DNA of 31,234 bases. It comes from an uncultured Candidatus Saccharibacteria bacterium (lineage in GTDB: Bacteria > Patescibacteriota > Minisyncoccia > Phycocordibacterales > UBA5272). A program made the translations under genes and the position numbers. Shown here piece by piece: positions 1 to 17,310 of this stretch; position 1 is the stretch's first letter, and every line of letters starts with the position of its first letter. The notes beneath the pieces were generated by a model. The model had not been told where the DNA came from. It worked only from the letters and a program-made list of their open reading frames with translations, and ran no database searches. The stretch covers positions 1 to 31,234 of the forward strand of contig CAZNZP010000001.1 of NCBI GenBank assembly GCA_964577625.1, written 5' to 3'.

Positions 1-371
1 TCATTGATAAAAAGATTTTCAGGTTTTAAATTAAATTGTTTTTTAGCTAAAAGATTTTCTAATATTCTTAATGCTTCAATCACAATCTCCACATTCATAC
101 GAGAGATTAAATTACTTTCTTTAGTGATAGTCAGATAAGAGATTAATAGAGAGACATTATCTAAAGAATTTCTATAAATAGAAAGTGTATCTTTGTGTTC
201 AAGATAAGCTAAAGAGTTGAGAGATTTAATTAATTCATTCGCTTCTTTTCGGAGTTCATGTTTAATTGATTCTGTGTCTTTTAGAAATTGAGAAATCAGA
301 TAAATAGCCGTAACAATTTTCTCTGTCTTTTTAGCAATTAACAAATTGTAATTTGTGGACCCAGTATTCAT
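1..371 (-). CDS. Hypothetical helical protein, 5' part only (runs off the window); resembles the N-terminus of a Parcubacteria family recalled to carry a C-terminal winged-helix domain
   Basis: Manual translation from ATG at 371 is open to position 1: MNTGSTNYNLLIAKKTEKIVTAIYLISQFLKDTESIKHELRKEANELIKSLNSLAYLEHKDTLSIYRNSLDNVSLLISYL... An in-frame TAA lies just upstream of the ATG, and TATAAT is on the minus strand at 390-385. Absent from the ORF track because no stop falls in the window. Family assignment is from memory. Confidence 0.75.
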   Translation of the reverse strand, partial: MNTGSTNYNLLIAKKTEKIVTAIYLISQFLKDTESIKHELRKEANELIKSLNSLAYLEHKDTLSIYRNSLDNVSLLISYLTITKESNLISRMNVEIVIEALRILENLLAKKQFNLKPENLFIN

Positions 372-374
372 ACT

Positions 375-703
375 TGTCTTTTATATTATATTATTTCTAT
401 TAACTCCCACAATTAATTCTTTACTCAAATACTATACTTTTTTTCTGAAAATATCAAGTTTGTTTTTAAACTCTGATTTTAGTGTCTTTTATATTTTTTT
501 TATAGCTTGTCTTTTACATTTTTTAAAGATGTTGTGTCTTTTATATTTTTAATGTCCTTTATTTTTAGTTATTAAATTAATACTAATGTCCTTTATTATT
601 CTGTCCTTTTGTTTATAAAGGACATTAGTATATTTAATAATGTCCTTTATAAAATGTCTTTTATATGTTGTGTCTTTTCTAAACTAATTTATTTTTGTCT
701 TTT
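375..703. repeat. Array of TGTCYTTT octamers with an embedded 17-bp inverted repeat
   Basis: Copies start at 375, 483, 508, 535, 553, 587, 602, 641, 655, 671 and 696, with one reversed copy at 617. Further copies at 275 and 324 lie inside the left gene. Inverted repeat ATACTAATGTCCTTTAT (580-596) / ATAAAGGACATTAGTAT (615-631). Confidence 0.9.
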
Positions 704-716
704 ATAAATTAAAAAG

Positions 717-725
717 TTATCCACA
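717..725 (+). promoter_or_regulatory. Perfect DnaA box
   Basis: TTATCCACA matches the DnaA R-box consensus and abuts the ftsK extended -10. Confidence 0.6.
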
Positions 726-734
726 TGATATAAT
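726..734 (+). promoter_or_regulatory. Extended -10 promoter element for ftsK
   Basis: TGaTATAAT about 40 nt upstream of the probable ATG at 775. Confidence 0.55.
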
Positions 735-774
735 TCAAATGAAGAAACCTTCGGCTTATTTATTATTTATATTT

Positions 775-3285
775 ATGAAAAAAGACAAGAAAAAAGAAAG
801 TTCCACAAAAAATACACATCGTGAAAAAAGGAAAAAGTTATTTACTAGCACTACTTCAGCAATTATCTTTTTCTTATTGGGAGCTATTGCACTCTTTTCC
901 TCTTTTAATGCCGGAGGACAAGTAGGCGCTTCTATTTTTGGAACTCTAGAATTAATTTTGGGCTGGGTGGCCTATATTCTCTTTTTAGGATTCTTTTGGG
1001 TGGGTTATAATTTTTGGAGAGATAAAGAAGATACTCGTCCTGATTTTGTTTCTATTTTAGCTCTTCTTGTGATTCTTTTTTCTTTGACTACTTTTACGGC
1101 TTCTATTGGTCTAGGCAATTCTGGAGTGGTCGGAGAATATTTTTCAGCTTTTCTAAAAGATAACTTTGGAAATATTTTGCCAGCCATTTTGTCTTTTGCT
1201 TTAGGTCTTATAGCTTTTGTAATTCTCTATCAAGACAAACCTTCTCTTAAGTTGCTTAAAAAGAAAAACGAAGAAGCTGAAGAAATAGAAAATTCTCAAA
1301 CTGAAGACACTTCTACTCTATCTTTAGACTATACTCGCACACCTTTGGATACTCCAAAAAAGTCTGCTGGAAAGATTTGGGGGGGAACCTGGAAAGCCAT
1401 ACTCACCTTCTTTAAGAAGATCTTTTCTTTTTTGATTTTTATTTTTTCTTTTAAATGGTTACGAGATATTTTGGCGAAGAAAAAAGCTCAAAAGAAAATT
1501 TTAGAAGACTTGGAAAAGCCAGAATCTGAGATTTATAAAGTTTCTAATCTTCATTTAGAAATGATGAATAATTTTGAAAGTAATAAAGAAGAAACTCCTG
1601 AAGAACATCTAGATATAGAAACTCCTCATTTTGAAAGCGAGCATGCAGAATTACAAAAAGCTAGACAAAAGCCGGATGAAGAAAGAAAACAAAGTATTTT
1701 GGAAGAATCCAAACCTGTCTTTATTGAAGATGAGTTTGAAGCTCCAGATTTAGGGCTTTTAAATCCTGATCAAGGAAAATCCTCAGCTGGAGATTCTAAA
1801 TTTAAAATGAATATTATTCAAAAAGTTTTGAATCAATTTAATATTCCAGTAGAAATGGGAGAAGTGACTGTCGGACCTTCTGTTACTCAATTTACCTTAA
1901 AACCAGCTCAAGGAGTAAATGTGAGGAAAATTTTAGGACTCAAAGATAATCTTCAAATGGCGCTTTCGGCTACTAATATGCATATTGAAGCCCCAATTCC
2001 AGGTAAACCTTTTGTGGGTATTGGTATTCCAAATGAAAAGAAAACTTTGCTCGGACTTCGTAGTCTTTTAGAGCTTGATGAATTTAAGGAAGCTTCACCA
2101 CTAGCTTTAGCAATTGGTAAAAACATTATCGGTAAACCAGTCATTTCCGATCTTTCCAAAATGCCGCACTTGCTGGTAGCTGGTGCGACAGGTACAGGAA
2201 AATCTGTGACTTTGCACAACTTAATCATTTCTTTACTCTATAAAAATTCTCCTTATGATTTGAAATTAATTATTTTAGATCCAAAAAGAGTAGAATTTAC
2301 CGCTTACAACTCTTTGCCTCACCTCTACACTCCTATCATTAAAGATGCGAAAACTGCTATTAAGTCTTTGTCTTGGGCTGCTCAAGAAATGGACAGAAGA
2401 TATGATGTGCTTGGAGAATACGGTATGCCTAATATTACTGAATACAATAAAAAAATATTCTTCCCAGCTTTAGAAAAAGCTAAAAAGAAAAGTAGTGAGG
2501 GAGAATATGTGAAAGGACTTCCTCCAAAAATGCCGTATGTAGTGATAGTCTTTGACGAGTTTAATGACTTTATGCTTACCTATCCAAAAGAAATCACTCC
2601 GGTCATCACTTCTCTTACTCAAAAAGCTCGTGCGGCTGGTATTCATCTTATTTTGACCACTCAAAGACCAGATGTGAAAGTTATCACTGGTACTATCAAA
2701 GCCAATATACCATCTCGTATCGCCCTTAAGACTACTTCTCAAATAGACTCTCGCACCATTCTTGATCAAGCTGGAGCGGAAGATTTGCTTGGAAATGGAG
2801 ATATGCTTTATATGAATGGCTCAACTATCACTCGTGTTCAAGCTCCTTTTGTATCTAGTGAAGAAATCAAAGCCGTCATCACTCATATCAAAAAACGTTA
2901 TGAAGACTTTTTACCTGATATTATTGATGTGCAAAAAGTAAATATTTCTTCGTCTGCTACAAGTGGTTATAGAGAAATGGGAGGAGTAGATGAAAGAGAT
3001 CCTACTCAAGAGCCAATGGATGATGAAGATTATATGAGTGCTAGAGACTATGTGATTTCTACTGGTAAAGCTTCTACTAGTGCACTTCAAACTGCTTTCC
3101 GTTGGGGCTATAACAAATCTGCTCGTATCATTAACGATTTAGAAGCTTATGGTATTATCGGTCCGGCTGTTAGCGGACGCCACCGTGAAGTTTTGTTTGG
3201 AAAACCACAAGAAAGTGAAGTAGAAAAATTAGAAAGAGAATTAGAAGAAATGGAGAGTGATAACGACGAAGATGAAGACGAGTAG
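775..3285 (+). CDS. ftsK: DNA translocase FtsK/SpoIIIE
   Basis: N-terminal TM segments, PHLLVAGATGTGKS Walker A, VIVFDEF Walker B, KARAAGIHLILTTQRP, C-terminal gamma domain (ASTSALQ..FRWGYNKSARII). ORF is open from 739; the ATG at 775 is more likely. Confidence 0.97.
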   Translation: MKKDKKKESSTKNTHREKRKKLFTSTTSAIIFFLLGAIALFSSFNAGGQVGASIFGTLELILGWVAYILFLGFFWVGYNFWRDKEDTRPDFVSILALLVILFSLTTFTASIGLGNSGVVGEYFSAFLKDNFGNILPAILSFALGLIAFVILYQDKPSLKLLKKKNEEAEEIENSQTEDTSTLSLDYTRTPLDTPKKSAGKIWGGTWKAILTFFKKIFSFLIFIFSFKWLRDILAKKKAQKKILEDLEKPESEIYKVSNLHLEMMNNFESNKEETPEEHLDIETPHFESEHAELQKARQKPDEERKQSILEESKPVFIEDEFEAPDLGLLNPDQGKSSAGDSKFKMNIIQKVLNQFNIPVEMGEVTVGPSVTQFTLKPAQGVNVRKILGLKDNLQMALSATNMHIEAPIPGKPFVGIGIPNEKKTLLGLRSLLELDEFKEASPLALAIGKNIIGKPVISDLSKMPHLLVAGATGTGKSVTLHNLIISLLYKNSPYDLKLIILDPKRVEFTAYNSLPHLYTPIIKDAKTAIKSLSWAAQEMDRRYDVLGEYGMPNITEYNKKIFFPALEKAKKKSSEGEYVKGLPPKMPYVVIVFDEFNDFMLTYPKEITPVITSLTQKARAAGIHLILTTQRPDVKVITGTIKANIPSRIALKTTSQIDSRTILDQAGAEDLLGNGDMLYMNGSTITRVQAPFVSSEEIKAVITHIKKRYEDFLPDIIDVQKVNISSSATSGYREMGGVDERDPTQEPMDDEDYMSARDYVISTGKASTSALQTAFRWGYNKSARIINDLEAYGIIGPAVSGRHREVLFGKPQESEVEKLERELEEMESDNDEDEDE

Positions 3286-3649
3286 AAGAAATAAAAATAA
3301 ATACTATCAACCTTTTAGAGATAAATTAAGAGTCTGGCTTTTCTTTGGACTTTTAATTTTTATTTTGATTTATTTTTCTTTTAAGATTTTTAATTATTTT
3401 TCTGGTCCAAAAATAGAAGTTTTCTATCCTCAACCTTATGAAGTTATTACTGGAGAAACTTTTTTTATTTCTGGAAATGTAAAAAATGCTAGAAATATTT
3501 ATTTGAATGGTAGAGAAATTACTATTGATGAGAAAGGAGACTTCAAAGAAGAGTTAATTTCCAAAAGCCCATATACCTTAATAGTTTTGCATGCTATAGA
3601 TAAATATAGTAAAGAAAGTGAATTGGTTTTACAAGTTGGAAAAGATTAG
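3272..3649 (+). CDS. Small membrane-anchored Ig-like-fold protein (CPR-type)
   Basis: One TM helix, then GP.I.V..P...ISGNVKNA..IYLNGREI..D..G.F.EEL, a beta-sandwich pattern. Overlaps the ftsK stop, suggesting translational coupling. Confidence 0.75.
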   Translation: MKTSRRNKNKYYQPFRDKLRVWLFFGLLIFILIYFSFKIFNYFSGPKIEVFYPQPYEVITGETFFISGNVKNARNIYLNGREITIDEKGDFKEELISKSPYTLIVLHAIDKYSKESELVLQVGKD

Positions 3650-3736
3650 TATTTTTCTCTTTCCTTCAAAATCCCCTTGTTTTTCAATGATTTTTTGATA
3701 CCACAAAAAAGGTTATTAATTTTTAATTAAAAATAC

Positions 3737-3765
3737 TTGACATAAAAATATATCTATGCTAATAT
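3737..3765 (+). promoter_or_regulatory. Strong sigma70 promoter
   Basis: TTGACA (3737-3742), 17-nt spacer, TG at -15/-14, TAATAT (3760-3765). Confidence 0.8.
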
Positions 3766-3771
3766 ATTATC

Positions 3772-4109
3772 AGACTTGAGTTGATGGTTTTAGTTTTGAC
3801 CAACTGTTAGACAGTGTCATCCATCATTTAACCGCTCAAGAAAATATATATTATAAAAAAATAAAAACTCGAAAAACCGAAAAAAATGCCGAAAATTCGA
3901 GATCAGACGCTCTGGTAAAATATTCAGACGTCTAAATAAAAATTAAAAAACCGTGCCCGAATTAAGAGAGACCCTAATTCTTCGGCCATAAAATATGGTC
4001 TCTCACTTAGCTCCGCCGATATCGCTTGGAGCACATTGCACGGAACCAGCGGAGAACGTTCCGCAAAGAAGAGGTTTGTCCTCGCCCCCTAGAGAATCTA
4101 GGGGGTTTT
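3772..4109 (+). ncRNA. Candidate structured non-coding RNA of unknown family
   Basis: Bounded by a consensus promoter and an intrinsic terminator, with no ORF longer than a few tens of codons. Many GC-rich helices in an AT-rich background. No RNase P, tmRNA, SRP or 6S signature recognised. Confidence 0.55.
4085..4109 (+). terminator. Intrinsic terminator
   Basis: CCCCCTAGA-gaa-TCTAGGGGG followed by TTTT. Confidence 0.8.
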
Positions 4110-4117
4110 ACTTTATA

Positions 4118-4126
4118 TGTTATAAT
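4118..4126 (+). promoter_or_regulatory. Extended -10 promoter for recA
   Basis: TGtTATAAT 25 nt upstream of the recA ATG. Confidence 0.65.
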
Positions 4127-4150
4127 TCGGACATAATTTAGAAAATATAT

Positions 4151-5263
4151 ATGGCTACAAAGAAAAAAGTTGCAAAGAAAACAACAGCAAAAAAAGTTAC
4201 TAACGTTACCAAAAAAGATTCTGAAGAAAAAGGTGTAAATACAGATGAACTTTTGAAAGAAATTCAGCATAAATTTGGTGAAGGAGCTATCATGAAGCTT
4301 GGAGAAACTCCGAAAGTTCATGTCGGTGCTGTACCTACAGGATCCATTGGTCTTGATTATGCTCTTGGAGTTGGCGGACTTCCACGAGGAAGAATTATTG
4401 AAATTTTTGGACCGGAATCTTCTGGAAAGACCACTCTTACACTTCATGTCATTGCTGAAGCACAAAAAATGGGAGGCACTTGTGCTTTCATTGATGCAGA
4501 ACATGCTATGGATCCAGAGTATGCTAGAAAGTTAGGAATAAAAATTAATGAGCTTCTAATCTCTCAACCAGATAATGGTGAACAAGCTCTAGACATTGCT
4601 GAGACTTTGGTAAGAAGTGGAAAAATTGATGTGGTAGTCATAGACTCTGTAGCTGCTCTTACTCCTCAAGCTGAAATTGAAGGAGATATGGCCCAAGCTC
4701 ATGTCGGAAGACAAGCTCGCCTTATGTCTCAAGCTTTGAGAAAGCTCACAGCTATTGCTCACAAATCAAAGACTGTAATTATTTTTATTAATCAGATTAG
4801 AATGCAAATCGGTGTCATGTTTGGTAATCCAGAAACTACTCCAGGAGGAAAAGCTCTCAAATTCTATTCTTCTGTGCGTCTTGATATTCGTAGAATTGCA
4901 CAAATCAAAAAAGGAGACGATGTACTTGGTGCTAGAACTAGAGTTAAAGTAGTCAAAAATAAAGTTGCTACCCCATTCAAATCTACTGAGTTTGATATTA
5001 TGTATGGTGAAGGTATTTCTCATGAGGGAGAACTTTTGGCTCTTGGAGAAAAGTTTAAAATCGTTTCTAAAGCTGGAGCTTCTTATAGCTACGGAGAGGA
5101 AAAGCTTGGTCGTGGATATGATGCAGCTAGAACTTTCTTAAAAGAAAATAAAAAAGTTTCTAAAGATTTAGAAAAGCAAATTCGTAAAAATCTTGAAGGT
5201 GGAGGACTAGATTTTGCTCCTAGCCGTGAAGAGACGGAAGAGGATGAAGCTCCGGAAGAATAG
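4151..5263 (+). CDS. recA: Recombinase RecA
   Basis: [59 protein letters not shown]. Confidence 0.99.
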
Positions 5264-13364: not shown

Positions 13365-14312
13365 ATGGAAAAAAATATCTTTGATTTAATTATTGTTGGT
13401 GGTGGACCAGCTGGAGCTAGTGCAGCTGTCTATGCCGCTAGAAAACGTTTGAAAACTGTTTTAATTTTAAAAGAATGGGGCGGACAATCAGTAGTCAGTG
13501 AAGATATACAAAACTGGATTGGTACTCCACATATTTCTGGTATGGATTTAGCCAAAAATTTAGAAACTCATGTGAAAGAATATGCTTCGGATGTTTTGGA
13601 AATAAAAACTGAAAATCTCGTAACCAAAGCTGAAACTCTTAAAGATGAAGAAGAGAAACTTATTAAAGTGACTTTGGAAAATGGAGAGGAGGTCTTTGGA
13701 AAATCTTTACTAATTACTACTGGATCAACTAGACGCCGCCTACAAGCTATTAATGCTGATAAGTTTGAATTTAAAGGATTAACTTATTGCTCCACTTGCG
13801 ATGGTCCAATGTTTTCTGGAATGGATGTGATTGTAGTTGGAGGAGGAAATGCTGGATTTGAAGCTGCCGCCCAATTACTCGCCTACTGTAAATCTGTTAC
13901 TCTTTTATCTCGTTCTGAACCAAGAGCTGAAAAAATTATTATTGATAAGCTTTTAGAAAATCCTAATTTCAAATTAATTAAAAATATTACTATTAAAGAA
14001 GTCCATGGTGAAACTTTTACAAATGGACTCACTTATGTAAACAAATTTACTGGAGAAGAGACCAGATTAGACACTGGAGGAATCTTTATAGAAATCGGAC
14101 AAATCCCAGCTACTGATTGGGTAAAAGATATTGTAGAGTTAGATGAGGAAAATAAAGTAAAAATTGATCCTTGGACTAATAGAGCTTCGGGAGAAAATCT
14201 TATTTGGGCAGCAGGAGATTGTACCAATATTCTTTATTATCAAAATAATATTGCTAGTGGTGAAGCGATTAAAGCTATAGAAGATATTTATAAAACTTTA
14301 AAGACAAGATAA
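13365..14312 (+). CDS. trxB: Thioredoxin-disulfide reductase (TrxB/AhpF C-terminal type)
   Basis: IVGGGPAGASAAVYAAR, redox CSTC, VVGGGNAG, WAAGDCT. Confidence 0.9.
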   Translation: MEKNIFDLIIVGGGPAGASAAVYAARKRLKTVLILKEWGGQSVVSEDIQNWIGTPHISGMDLAKNLETHVKEYASDVLEIKTENLVTKAETLKDEEEKLIKVTLENGEEVFGKSLLITTGSTRRRLQAINADKFEFKGLTYCSTCDGPMFSGMDVIVVGGGNAGFEAAAQLLAYCKSVTLLSRSEPRAEKIIIDKLLENPNFKLIKNITIKEVHGETFTNGLTYVNKFTGEETRLDTGGIFIEIGQIPATDWVKDIVELDEENKVKIDPWTNRASGENLIWAAGDCTNILYYQNNIASGEAIKAIEDIYKTLKTR

Positions 14313-14413
14313 AAAGGACGAAAAACTATATAAAATAAAAGGAGTTTAGTAGATTTCTTTTATTTTTATTTACCTTTCACATGGTATAATTAGAGGGTAA
14401 ATTATAAAAATAT

Positions 14414-14887
14414 ATGAAGTTAAAAGATGCTAGAAAAAATCACAAAGTGAGATTAATTGTGATAATAGTTTTATTATTGATAGTTGCGTTTCTTTATTTT
14501 AGAGGCGTAAATTGGTCAAATATGACCTCTTGGGAAGGTATTAAGAGTGAACTTGCAGCAAACTATAAACCAGATACCACTGACAAGAAAATTTTAGCTG
14601 GAGCTGGAGCTGTGCTCACTGGAGCTGGTATTTTGGAAGCTACTCAAAACGACTGGGATTTATCTACTGGCCAAAAAGTTTTGAGAGACTTACAAGGTAA
14701 TGTGGTAGATCCAAATTCTCCAGAAGCCGCCAATGCAAAATACACAGATGAATACAACTGTGCTGACTTTAAAACTCAACCAGAAGCTCAAGCTTTCTTT
14801 ATAAAAGCTGGCGGCCCATCTAATGATACAAATAGATTAGACGGAGACAAAGATGGTACAGCATGTGAAGCTTTACCAAAGAATTAA
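14414..14887 (+). CDS. Membrane-anchored Excalibur calcium-binding domain protein
   Basis: N-terminal TM helix; C-terminal [13 protein letters not shown]...[12 protein letters not shown]. Confidence 0.85.
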
Positions 14888-14906
14888 TTAAAAAAATACT
14901 AAATAT

Positions 14907-15173
14907 ATGGATTTAATCATTAGTTTACTTTCAGGTGCTATTGGTGGAAATGCTGTAGGTGCAGCAAACAAAAAACAAAATATGGGTGTGCTTTGGAATA
15001 CTGTCATTGGTCTTATTGGAGGACTTGTTGGATCTGAAGCTTTACAAGCTCTCGTTTCTAATTTAGTCGCCAATACTCTTGGTAATGTAATAGGTTCTGC
15101 AGCTGCTGGTGCTGTTGCTATTTATATAGTAAATTTCATCAAAGATCTTTTAGCTAAAAAGAAAAGTGCTTAA
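14907..15173 (+). CDS. GlsB/YeaQ/YmgE (transglycosylase-associated) family small membrane protein
   Basis: Gly-rich TM helices, GAIGG...MGVLWNTVIGLIGGLVG pattern. Confidence 0.75.
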   Translation: MDLIISLLSGAIGGNAVGAANKKQNMGVLWNTVIGLIGGLVGSEALQALVSNLVANTLGNVIGSAAAGAVAIYIVNFIKDLLAKKKSA

Positions 15174-15187
15174 GATAAAAAATTAAA

Positions 15188-15220
15188 TAATAAAACTCCT
15201 CAATTTGAGGAGTTTTATTA
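15188..15220. terminator. Bidirectional terminator
   Basis: TAATAAAACTCCTC-aattt-GAGGAGTTTTATTA. Confidence 0.85.
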
Positions 15221-15221
15221 T

Positions 15222-15341
15222 TTGTGACCTTACGGGGAATCGGTCACTAAATATATTCGCTACGCTCATTATTTCGCGACCCCGCTTCGTCGTCTCACTC
15301 ACTTCGTTCGTGACTTCGTAGACGACTCAGTTCGATTCCCC
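15222..15341 (-). repeat. tRNA-Glu 3'-end duplication with a palindromic REP-like insert
   Basis: TTGTGACCTTACGGGGAATCG at 15222-15242 is identical to 15396-15416. An inverted T-arm copy GTTCGATTCCCC lies at 15330-15341, and the internal helix GTCGTCT/AGACGAC is present. Confidence 0.75.
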
Positions 15342-15359
15342 TTAATTTCAGATTTTGCA

Positions 15360-15387
15360 AAACACCACTCCTTACAGAGTGGTGTTT
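15360..15387 (-). terminator. Hairpin downstream of tRNA-Glu
   Basis: AAACACCACTC-cttaca-GAGTGGTGTTT. Confidence 0.75.
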
Positions 15388-15398
15388 AAACAAAATTG

Positions 15399-15470
15399 TG
15401 ACCTTACGGGGAATCGAACCCCGATTTCATCCGTGAAAGGGACGTGTCCTAACCGTTAGACGATAAGGCC
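15399..15470 (-). tRNA. tRNA-Glu(UUC), CCA not encoded
   Basis: GGCCTTA/TAAGGTC acceptor, CGTCC-CTTTCAC-GGATG anticodon arm, GGGTTCGATTCCC T-arm. Confidence 0.96.
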
Positions 15471-15564
15471 ATCCAAACTAAAAATCTTTTATAAATAAAA
15501 GTTTTTTAGTTTAGAAAAAAATTATAACACAAAAAACCTTTTTTTCAAAATTCAAAACTTTTTC

Positions 15565-17310
15565 CTATTCTTCATCTACTAGATTTCTCAAGACTTTTTC
15601 AGGAACTTCTTTCATACCTTCCTCTATTTCAATGACTGGAACTTTTACTTCTTTTTCTATAATCAAAGTTTCTTTACGAACTTTTTCTTCTTGCATAGCT
15701 TTAGCCAAAGCATCTTTGAGGGAGGTATTATTAGCACTTAGTTCTTGTTTAGCTTTTTTAGCTTCTTCTCTGACTTTACTAATATTCACATTGTCAATAT
15801 CACTCTCTCGTCTCTTAGAGCGAGTTCTTCCTCCAAATCTTTCATTTCTATTCTCAAAATTTTGTCTCTCAGATTTTTCATTTCTTTCTTGTCTTTCATT
15901 TCTAAAATCTTTTCTAAATTCCCTATTATCTTTATTTTCAAATTTGTTGTCAGAGAAAGCAGGTTTTTCTGAATGTTCTTTTTTAAAAACTGGTGTATAC
16001 CATTCTTCAATTTCTTTTTCTACTTCTTCTTTCTTTTTTCCATATTGATGACGAGAGTATTCTATAATATCTTCTGCATGGGAAGTGTCAGGTTTAGCTA
16101 TTGGTGGAAGTCCACGTGCTGAAAAAGGTTTTGAGCCGACATTGTCTATCATAAGTCGAAGATACATTTGATAAGCAGAAAGATTTACAATATCGTCCGC
16201 TGTAAAGACTGGAGCGAATTCTTTTTCAAAAACTTCTGCATCACCTGCTCCTACTCTAAAGGTCACCATAGTTCCTACATTTCCAAAAATTGCCGCTTTG
16301 ACTTCATCGGTCATTTGTTCAATATATTGATGCCCTACCGCAAGAGCTAATTGATATTTCCTAGCTTCAGACAAAATTTGCGCAAAAGAGTCATTAGCAA
16401 AATTTTGAAATTCATCTACATAAAAATAAAATGGGGGTAATTCATTTAGCTTGTATGGATCAACATCCGCCCGACTCATTGCTGCCAAATAAATTTTTGT
16501 AATCAAAAGTGAGCCGATAAGATTCGCATTCCCTTCCCCCATTTTTCCTTTAGAGAGATTAATAATTAAAATTTTCCTTTCATCCATCACTTCGCGAATA
16601 TCAAAACTTGTTCTCTTTTGTCCAATAATATTTCTAATGAGAGGGTTGGAAGTAAATTGTCCAATTTTATTTTGAATAGCTGGAGCAGCTTCTTGTTGAT
16701 ATTTTTCTCCTGCTTTAGCAAACTCTTCTGTCCAGAAAGATTTGATAGATGGGTCTTGCACGTTGGCTACCATTTTTTTACGATAGTCTTTATCACTCAA
16801 CATACGATTAATACCAATCAAAGTCTCATCATCATTTTCTAGGAGAGCTAGGATAATATTATTCAAAATATTTTGCATTCTATCTGAAAATTTATCTTCT
16901 CCAAAGACTTTTTTGAAAGCTGCCATGAGACCATTAGCTACCAAATGTCTTTTACTAATATCCACTTTTTCAAGCACATTTAAAGCTATTGGATATTCTG
17001 TATCAAAAGGAGCAAAGTAGATTACGTCTTTTTTTCTATGCTCTGGTACGAAATCCAAGAGCTTCTCAGCGCTTCCTCCATGAGGATCCATAAAAGCTAC
17101 CCCTTCCCCATTTTGAATGTCTTGAATCGCCATATTTTCAAGCAAAGTAGACTTTCCCATCCCAGACTTTCCAATCACATACATATGTTTTGTCCTATCT
17201 TTGGCTTTAATGCCAAATTTGACCATCTTATTACGATAGTCAATATTACCCATATAGGTAATTTTATTTGGGTCATTTATGTATTCTTTTTTTTCTACAT
17301 TTTCTGACAT
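15565..17310 (-). CDS. VirD4/TraD-like (HerA/FtsK-fold) ATPase, type IV secretion coupling-protein-like
   Basis: HMYVIGKSGMGKS Walker A, FMDPHG, FYVDEFQNF Walker B, LSEARKYQLALAVGHQYIEQ, GNVGTMVTFRVG. Confidence 0.88.
   Translation of the reverse strand: MSENVEKKEYINDPNKITYMGNIDYRNKMVKFGIKAKDRTKHMYVIGKSGMGKSTLLENMAIQDIQNGEGVAFMDPHGGSAEKLLDFVPEHRKKDVIYFAPFDTEYPIALNVLEKVDISKRHLVANGLMAAFKKVFGEDKFSDRMQNILNNIILALLENDDETLIGINRMLSDKDYRKKMVANVQDPSIKSFWTEEFAKAGEKYQQEAAPAIQNKIGQFTSNPLIRNIIGQKRTSFDIREVMDERKILIINLSKGKMGEGNANLIGSLLITKIYLAAMSRADVDPYKLNELPPFYFYVDEFQNFANDSFAQILSEARKYQLALAVGHQYIEQMTDEVKAAIFGNVGTMVTFRVGAGDAEVFEKEFAPVFTADDIVNLSAYQMYLRLMIDNVGSKPFSARGLPPIAKPDTSHAEDIIEYSRHQYGKKKEEVEKEIEEWYTPVFKKEHSEKPAFSDNKFENKDNREFRKDFRNERQERNEKSERQNFENRNERFGGRTRSKRRESDIDNVNISKVREEAKKAKQELSANNTSLKDALAKAMQEEKVRKETLIIEKEVKVPVIEIEEGMKEVPEKVLRNLVDEE

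Follow-up and report, generated by a model that had tools for sequence, protein, structure and literature searches.

Arrayed TGTCYTTT boxes between ftsK and a divergent gene as probable operators of an Avd-like, winged-helix regulator in a Saccharibacteria genome

What is the function of a dense array of short direct repeats, with the core TGTCYTTT, that separates ftsK from a divergently oriented gene in the genome of an uncultured Candidatus Saccharibacteria bacterium? The array lies near the start of contig CAZNZP010000001.1 (assembly GCA_964577625.1), of which we analyzed positions 1 to 31,234; this 31,234-nucleotide stretch is hereafter called the window. The original prediction held that the repeats bind the product of the leftward gene and that they make up a candidate segregation or origin module linked to ftsK. 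Synteny, box-pair searches, and a structural model of the leftward protein strongly support the first part of that proposal; the origin role is rejected, and the segregation role is unsupported. We consider it probable that the repeats are the operator array of an autoregulated protein, in which a probably ring-forming, Avd-like domain is combined with a winged helix-turn-helix (wHTH), and that this regulator shares its control region with ftsK.

A motif search recovered the eleven copies of TGTCYTTT that had been reported within 483-703, ten on the plus strand and one inverted, as well as the copy at the start of the leftward gene. Plus-strand copies begin at 375, 483, 508, 535, 553, 587, 602, 641, 655, 671, and 696, and the single minus-strand copy is at 617, which brings the tally in 375-703 to 12 (11 forward, 1 inverted). 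The whole window contains 23 copies versus 5.53 ± 2.05 expected, with a maximum of 10, in dinucleotide shuffles. Outside the array, the octamer occurs at 0.32 per kb of the 518-kb assembly, compared with 12 copies in ~0.33 kb here. Alignment of the sites extended the consensus to TGTCYTTTATAA; the full box, TGTCYTTTATA, is 11 to 12 bp long. Spacings between boxes were near multiples of ~13 bp (R = 0.57 at period 13, P < 0.0005 versus uniform spacings, calculated over loci that are not independent). The array (483-707) was the largest upstream box array among the loci examined, and it sits in a spacer of ~20% GC that is AT-rich like all intergenic regions in this genome. By position in the window, the features of the locus are as follows:

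3-371, minus strand: regulator gene, first 123 codons (four-helix-bundle domain), from the open reading frame (ORF) and its translation; the contig start truncates the gene
275-283, plus strand: 9-mer box copy within the regulator coding sequence, TGTCTTTTA
375-385, plus strand: leader box of the regulator gene, ending 3 nt ahead of the regulator ATG (371-369)
429-457, minus strand: regulator promoter from a promoter scan, with TTGATA (457-452), a 17-nt spacer, and a -10 of TATAGT or TAGTAT (~434-429); putative transcript start near 422
483-707, plus strand: 11-box array, TGTCYTTT(ATA), 10 forward and 1 inverted, between the divergent promoters and pointing towards ftsK
580-653, no strand: two overlapping palindromes that share the inverted box, from an inverted-repeat search; palindrome 1 is 580-596/615-631 (17 nt, perfect, with an 18-nt loop that contains the 602-609 box copy) and palindrome 2 is 612-630/635-653 (19 nt, 95%)
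614-624, minus strand: lone inverted box, TATAAAGGACA as read on the plus strand
717-725, plus strand: perfect DnaA box, TTATCCACA, abutting the ftsK extended -10
726-734, plus strand: ftsK extended -10 promoter, TGATATAAT, kept in orthologs, with a predicted transcript start at ~741
775-3285, plus strand: ftsK, with 4TM, alpha, motor, and gamma domains

The ORFs confirmed that gene orientation diverges at the array, and the perfect DnaA box described at its end is present; it is the sole DnaA box with one mismatch or fewer in the array region. It falls within the ftsK promoter spacer, and the ftsK -35 position abuts the last box of the array. The perfect 17-bp inverted repeat of 580-631, with a box in its loop, was likewise borne out, together with the second palindrome that overlaps it. 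As single-stranded DNA, the palindrome region folds at -13.8 kcal/mol (z = -7.0). The box copy inside the regulator coding sequence may be incidental.

This arrangement is conserved. All 11 loci of the genus have a divergent ftsK and a TATAAARGACA array between the two genes, with TATAAACGACA used throughout in one species and mixed boxes in three. Among the three closest species, the boxes are fixed in position while the spacers have diverged, and the regulator promoter (429-457) is identical. The leader box occupies the same place in the two closest species, and the inverted box in the middle of the array recurs in most orthologous arrays. Further afield, a profile search found the regulator protein in 38 of 41 relatives, and its divergent neighbor was ftsK, with the box array retained, in 28 of 29 loci from 17 families, the shared synteny for which the original prediction had called. 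The locus is chromosomal, and its ftsK-recA synteny extends across the 17 families.

Boxes also track the regulator gene. We searched each genome for pairs of boxes 3 to 20 nt apart, using the reversed box as a control. Genomes of the genus contained 3 to 25 such pairs versus 0 to 2 for the control. In eight distant genomes (G027, G028, G030, G033, G036, G037, G039, and G040) there were few box pairs, and these were located on or just upstream of the regulator gene. The commonest 8-mer of the gene plus its upstream region was AAARGACA in many of 18 distant loci. The recognition helix is near-invariant (CSEKTIQREL; CSVKTIQREL in this genus). Within the genus it does not vary, which makes helix/box covariation there impossible. 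The sole genome with an altered helix (FGPKMIQRDL) carries altered boxes as well (TATAGGACA). The variable fifth base of the box (C or T here, G in genome G008) is evidently not read by the recognition helix. Boxes inside genes, namely in the linker of the regulator itself and in cca, occur in two codon phases and encode KD or KGQ accordingly; it is thus the DNA word that is conserved and not the peptide. These associations strongly support the view that the neighboring protein may be the one that reads the box, and we infer that it is the binder.

What kind of protein would this be? Because the window begins at a contig end, the leftward ORF is only the 5' part of its gene. The remainder, encoding a linker and the winged helix, lies on another contig of the same assembly (C10:3-491). 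The family profile matches the window's contig at C1:6-383 (profile positions 8-133) and the second contig at C10:51-485 (positions 136-263). Since the 5'-open ORF on C10 matches the C-terminal half of orthologs (274-329 aa) almost residue for residue, the two contigs abut, with a gap of ~10 to 15 codons (~30 to 45 bp). The resulting protein has ~300 aa. In an AlphaFold2 model of an 87%-identical ortholog, a four-helix bundle spans residues 8-112, with a predicted local distance difference test score above 90, followed by a disordered K/E/N-rich linker (~120-225) and a confidently modeled wHTH (226-297), the domain that had been anticipated for the leftward product. The C-terminal matches in Pfam (HTH_DeoR, HTH_11, and HTH_36) all fall below curated cut-offs. 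HTH_DeoR gave a weak match in 19 of 27 family members (best E value, 5.4e-5, and sub-cut-off in the members shown), and none of the 27 had a Pfam match to the DeoRC effector domain. We therefore describe the protein as a regulator with a single C-terminal wHTH that is DeoR-like by weak similarity, outside the classic DeoR family.

The N-terminal bundle resembles the Avd and intervening sequence (IVS) proteins. VIA structure comparison gave Z scores of 15.8 to 2gsc and 2rld and 14 to 14.8 to Avd, over 103 to 108 residues with a root mean square deviation of ~2 Å, compared with Z scores of 13 or less for generic four-helix bundles. When ranked against AlphaFold-DB, clusters named "four helix bundle," "23S rRNA-associated," and "bAvd-like" came after CPR (candidate phyla radiation) proteins of the same architecture. 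Pfam returned no PF05635 match in the proteins or in the genomes, and the threshold for PF05635 or PF22296 was not reached. A search of PDB sequences with the family profile returned insignificant matches alone (BlaI, E 0.16; 2gsc, E 1.2). The same profile did match stand-alone ORFs of 122 and 130 aa in two relatives (G027:C2:35364-35732 and G038:C3:30778-31170) with E values of 6e-6 and 7e-4, and both ORFs belong to PF05635 at ~E 1e-38. By sequence similarity, these PF05635 ORFs are the closest bridge between the regulator N-domain and the Avd/IVS family. An hhalign comparison gave 85% probability (E 6e-6). Because the profile, hhalign, and structure matches concur, though below Pfam thresholds, we assign the N-domain as a remote member of the 23S-rRNA-IVS/Avd superfamily.

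Avd itself is a pentameric barrel (PMC6182149). In a four-copy model of residues 1-125, the self-association score was 0.48 versus 0.09 for the best control, a mark that 21 of 30 solved homo-pairs and 0 of 23 single chains attained in a calibration which, unlike our model, did not hold four copies. One subunit of the model contacts two neighbors through two different faces, in a ring-like geometry, and the bundle thus modeled probably forms a ring oligomer. With 2355 clusters at E <= 1e-30 in a 1.84-billion-protein library, this is a large family; a literature search found no paper on it or on its box.

We propose that the array would act as a multivalent operator, or landing pad, for the protein of the leftward gene. 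The N-terminal IVS/Avd-type four-helix bundle would build a ring oligomer, from which the ~100-residue disordered linker would tether the bundle to a DeoR-like wHTH that reads TGTCYTTTATA. With several tethered heads on each particle, clusters of at least three loosely spaced boxes would then be the functional unit. Binding to the twelve boxes would let the protein damp down its own promoter (429-457, with help from the leader box at 375-385) and govern the divergent ftsK promoter (726-734) as well. The same box would mark a small conserved regulon. As for the sign of regulation, we infer an effect on transcription in which repression is favored.

The distribution of boxes elsewhere is regulon-like. 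The dense array stood out in the octamer map as had been expected from the original prediction, but the octamer is not unique to it: this genome has ~8 box clusters. They lie in the ftsK/regulator and HU-tig spacers, inside cca and the regulator linker, at the promoters of a cupin gene and of a 1139-aa BNR/sortilin surface protein, at ung/yraN, and at the start of contig C27. In a complete congener (G002), box sites are found in the ftsK spacer, the regulator gene, the HU-tig spacer, a pair inside a 515-aa ORF by parB, and three promoters of surface-protein-sized genes (733-1422 aa). Intergenic boxes numbered 38 versus a mean of 5.0 and a maximum of 24 for shuffled 9-mers. Several boxes coincide with core promoter elements: the last box of the giant surface-protein genes overlaps the -10 (TGTCGTTTATAAT), a small-RNA promoter likewise has a box over its -10, and in distant families the box TGTCCTTTACA supplies the -35 TTTACA. 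Boxes placed over core promoter elements are what marks out a transcription factor, and a repressor would be the simplest case. In cca (contig C31 3955-4006, minus strand), four boxes fall within 52 bp in two phases, read as DPIKDIIKDIYKGQDDIKDK, and they adjoin a conserved DxxxGxxDL region.

The HU-tig spacer holds two further conserved elements. One is a small-RNA candidate of ~120 to 150 nt (contig C5 3464-3613, minus strand; G002 531,077-531,203), which is kept in five species of the genus and has two conserved helices with 21 predicted pairs and little covariation; it had no Rfam match. The other, upstream of the HU gene (contig C5 3207-3330; G002 530,830-530,960), contains a long hairpin (GTCGCTGGACATG...CATGTCCAGCGA); after the hairpin, the arm occurs a third time.

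DnaA boxes recur beside the boxes. Perfect DnaA boxes lay 10 to 21 bp from a box in 3 of 12 cases in this genome and 3 of 11 in G002, and none of 300 control 9-mers of the same composition reached 3. Across the 41 relatives, composites of a DnaA box followed within 1 to 5 nt by a box totaled 53 versus 0 in controls: TTATCCACA-N1-5-box had 25 matches in 18 genomes and TGTGGATAA-N1-5-box had 28 matches in 21 genomes, with 0 for the reversed control in either case. A common arrangement was one DnaA box flanked by two boxes that face outward, with a -35 immediately downstream of the sandwich. Distant families carry this sandwich module between xth and cca, just past the 3' end of cca, and in this genus it stands ahead of the promoter of the conserved small-RNA candidate. 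At the ftsK promoter spacer, a DnaA box with one mismatch or fewer occupies the same place in 7 of the 11 loci of the genus. DnaA is a known transcription factor in other bacteria (for example, PMC13438810). The pairing of DnaA boxes with boxes may reflect control shared between the wHTH protein and DnaA in the role of a transcription factor, and some co-action of the regulator with DnaA would follow from it. A phyletic comparison was too weak to use. Of the genomes with no regulator match, only G026 qualifies (92% complete, with neither box pairs nor composites), given that G006 is 71% complete and G029 has missing bases; G029 has no regulator match, yet it has one composite DnaA-box/box site.

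At ftsK, the reading frame is open from an ATG at 739, merely 5 nt past the -10 hexamer. Given the position of the promoter and the fact that the most upstream RNA-library contig begins at 748, the ATG at 775 is the likelier start, and ATG AAA AAA GA at this position is conserved. An inverted box core, AAAAGACA, at 780-787 covers ftsK codons 2 to 4 and is not kept in relatives. Expression data came from four metatranscriptome runs containing the organism, as assembler contigs. Coverage of ftsK was of low depth from 748 onward, the regulator coding sequence (1-420) had none, and 567-747 was almost without coverage, with one 135-nt piece over 432-566. The ends of RNA contigs, such as those at 432 and 566, probably mark strain branch points rather than RNA ends. 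This pattern is compatible with ftsK being transcribed from an active promoter and the regulator gene being tightly repressed, and it does not amount to proof. We also considered the array as an RNA element and rejected that reading: the array lies between the two promoters, it is nearly without RNA-library coverage, and no Rfam family rose above noise in positions 1-5000 of the window or in other box-bearing regions.

Farther into the window, by far the most abundant RNA-library piece was a non-coding stretch ahead of recA (3780-4060), with word depths of 148-524 (X15) and 54-95 (X17) and one contig at a depth of 987, where ftsK had merely 2-12. The stretch had no Rfam match. In one RNA run, a variant replaced 3645-4144 with 36 other letters.

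Could the array be an origin of replication? The AT-rich spacer, iteron-like repeats, perfect DnaA box, and divergent transcription invite that reading, and when C1 and C10 are joined, both gene orientation and GC skew diverge at the array. We regard a chromosomal or plasmid-type iteron origin as already largely refuted and hardly tenable. In the complete congener G002 (614,345 bp), the cumulative GC-skew minimum is at ~535 kb and the maximum at ~179 kb, dnaA is at 481.5 kb, and the array is at 34.7 kb; it is thus ~110 kb from the skew minimum and ~170 kb from dnaA. No DnaA-box cluster occurs at the orthologous array of G002, which has two 1-mismatch boxes. The positions of the skew minimum and of dnaA in G002, together with the lack of a DnaA-box cluster at its array, led us to reject the oriC reading. 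In the genome studied here, dnaA is on a different contig (C47) with rnpA-rpmH as neighbors. Skew alone is uninformative in this fragmented genome because it follows gene orientation; both flip from plus to minus again at ~14,000-16,000, ~15 kb from the divergence at the array. A plasmid iteron origin was rejected as well, because the protein has a bundle and a single wHTH instead of a Rep-like fold with tandem winged helices and the ftsK-recA synteny is chromosomal. Iterons of 17 to 22 bp in helical phase also differ from boxes of 11 to 12 bp spaced at multiples of ~13 bp, and the ~8 clusters per genome, some of them inside genes, fit an origin poorly. Beside dnaA, ~460 bp of AT-rich non-coding DNA downstream of the gene (contig C47 1-460) contains several degenerate DnaA boxes, and its G002 counterpart (480.8-481.3 kb) has three 1-mismatch DnaA boxes. 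This non-coding DNA is a candidate for a conventional oriC, yet the G002 skew minimum is ~54 kb off.

The other alternatives keep the boxes as protein-binding sites and change either their purpose or their reader. One is that they would act like centromeres or anchor the nucleoid, as parC/ParR, tubC/TubR, or matS/MatP do, working with FtsK rather than in transcription. The near-universal pairing with a divergent ftsK, the direct-repeat arrays with their non-helical ~13-bp register, the in-gene boxes, which have no obvious role in promoters, the predicted oligomeric hub with flexible DNA-binding arms, and the presence of TubR at low rank among the wHTH fold matches all speak for such a role. 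We nevertheless judge such a segregation or structural function quite unlikely and unsupported. Canonical ParB was present in all four genomes checked and lies elsewhere in this one. No partition nucleoside triphosphatase (NTPase) of the ParA, ParM, or TubZ type was found beside the regulator, whose neighbors are ftsK and, past the regulator, a 996-aa PG_binding_1 protein. Promoter-proximal boxes overlie the -35 or -10 of several unrelated genes, box orientation follows the downstream gene and not the replichore, and in most distant genomes the boxes are restricted to the regulator locus, which fits autoregulation better. The association of DnaA boxes with these boxes raises another option, namely that boxes and DnaA boxes form datA/DARS-like or CtrA/Spo0A-like elements at which the wHTH gates access of DnaA, with replication or the cell cycle as the primary output. 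The enrichment and composites described above, and the sandwiching of DnaA boxes by outward-facing boxes, speak for this option. Here, however, one DnaA box accompanies twelve wHTH boxes and sits inside the ftsK promoter spacer, the sandwiches lie directly upstream of a -35 in the classic position of a transcription factor, and DnaA is known in that capacity elsewhere; we find such an output very unlikely. We are just as skeptical that the boxes are read by another factor or by RNA polymerase. TTGTCY does resemble a -35 and TATAAA a -10, and boxes spaced 14 to 15 bp apart mimic a promoter pair. Against this, genome-wide box pairs co-localize with the regulator gene in 17 families, the sole helix variant accompanies a box variant, twelve tandem promoters facing the same way would be without precedent, and almost no RNA contigs cover 567-747.

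The reading we favor, an operator array for the regulator, has its own difficulties. The link between protein and box is one of association, with a single case of helix/box covariation. Face-of-helix cooperative repressors usually differ from the non-helical ~13-bp register seen here. Neither core promoter is squarely covered by the array, which lies upstream of both; its influence on ftsK could thus be weak or activating, or there could be none. Matches of the C-terminal domain stay under Pfam cut-offs, and the bundle scores only modestly higher against its relatives than against generic bundles. Ring stoichiometry would be that of relatives, by analogy, as the four-copy model gives no subunit number. 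The RNA contigs are unstranded and shallow, with DNA carry-over possible. A bolder form of the operator reading would make the protein a ring-shaped, multi-armed cell-cycle hub that co-occupies DNA with DnaA at "box-DnaA box-box" sandwiches and couples the state of the initiator to ftsK, the small RNA, and surface-protein genes. We think this unlikely, if less far-fetched than the alternatives above. If true, the hub would be a functional counterpart of CtrA/GcrA-type circuits, built on an Avd-like scaffold in CPR bacteria of the Paceibacteria type.

How would such an operator array compare with known systems? In Escherichia coli, DeoR (O1/O2/OE), LacI (with O2 in lacZ), and GalR (with OI in galE) are autoregulated, multi-operator repressors. 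The locus shares with them a regulator beside its own sites, multiple operators for full control, and auxiliary sites in coding sequence, and the HTH of the regulator is most similar to HTH_DeoR. Unlike these repressors, it has a C-terminal HTH without DeoRC or another sensor domain, an Avd-like oligomerization module, up to 12 to 19 direct-repeat boxes versus 2 to 3 palindromic operators, and in-gene boxes that shape the regulator's own linker in two frames. MraZ, a SpoVT/AbrB-like ring-forming regulator, acts on a direct-repeat operator that heads the division/cell-wall (dcw) cluster, and it similarly pairs an oligomeric ring with direct repeats that precede both its own gene and genes for cell division. 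Its fold is different, however; it heads an operon instead of being divergent, and it has neither in-gene boxes nor DnaA-box partners. At tubC/TubR and parC/ParR, arrays of short direct repeats are coated by a small wHTH (TubR) or ribbon-helix-helix protein. The predicted wHTH-type reader and the short repeats are common ground, but our locus is chromosomal and has no cognate NTPase gene, in a genome with its own ParB and with boxes over unrelated promoters. BldC of Streptomyces is reported to be a small MerR-like protein that forms head-to-tail cooperative multimers on variable numbers of direct repeats (PMC5859096). Shared features would be asymmetric boxes in direct repeat, whose number varies between targets, and a reader that is multimeric and not a symmetric dimer. 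The DNA-binding folds are unrelated, and BldC is not known to have a separate oligomerization domain or long linker. With IVS/bAvd proteins (PF05635 and PF22296; 2gsc, 2rld, 4dwl, and 8ub7), the regulator has in common the bundle fold, profile homology, and predicted ring-like self-association. Known members are stand-alone proteins of ~110 to 130 aa tied to rRNA IVS elements or diversity-generating retroelements, whereas here a sub-Pfam-threshold bundle is joined by a disordered linker to a wHTH, and the gene is chromosomal and syntenic with ftsK.

Bacteria of the CPR, or Patescibacteria, are ultra-small and have tiny genomes with very few recognizable regulators, and to our knowledge the control of their division or replication is experimentally unexplored. 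Against this background, the locus would offer a concrete regulator-site pair, with a family of thousands of diverged members, a precisely defined 11-base box, and a small conserved regulon. The predicted protein has an uncommon design, with flexible winged-helix arms on an Avd-like ring, and its sites are partly written into coding sequence in two reading frames. DnaA boxes immediately beside the boxes hint at a link between the status of the initiator and gene control. If our interpretation is true, this would be among the first defined transcription circuits of the CPR, a large radiation without cultured members for the most part, and would represent a new way to build a multivalent DNA-binding protein.

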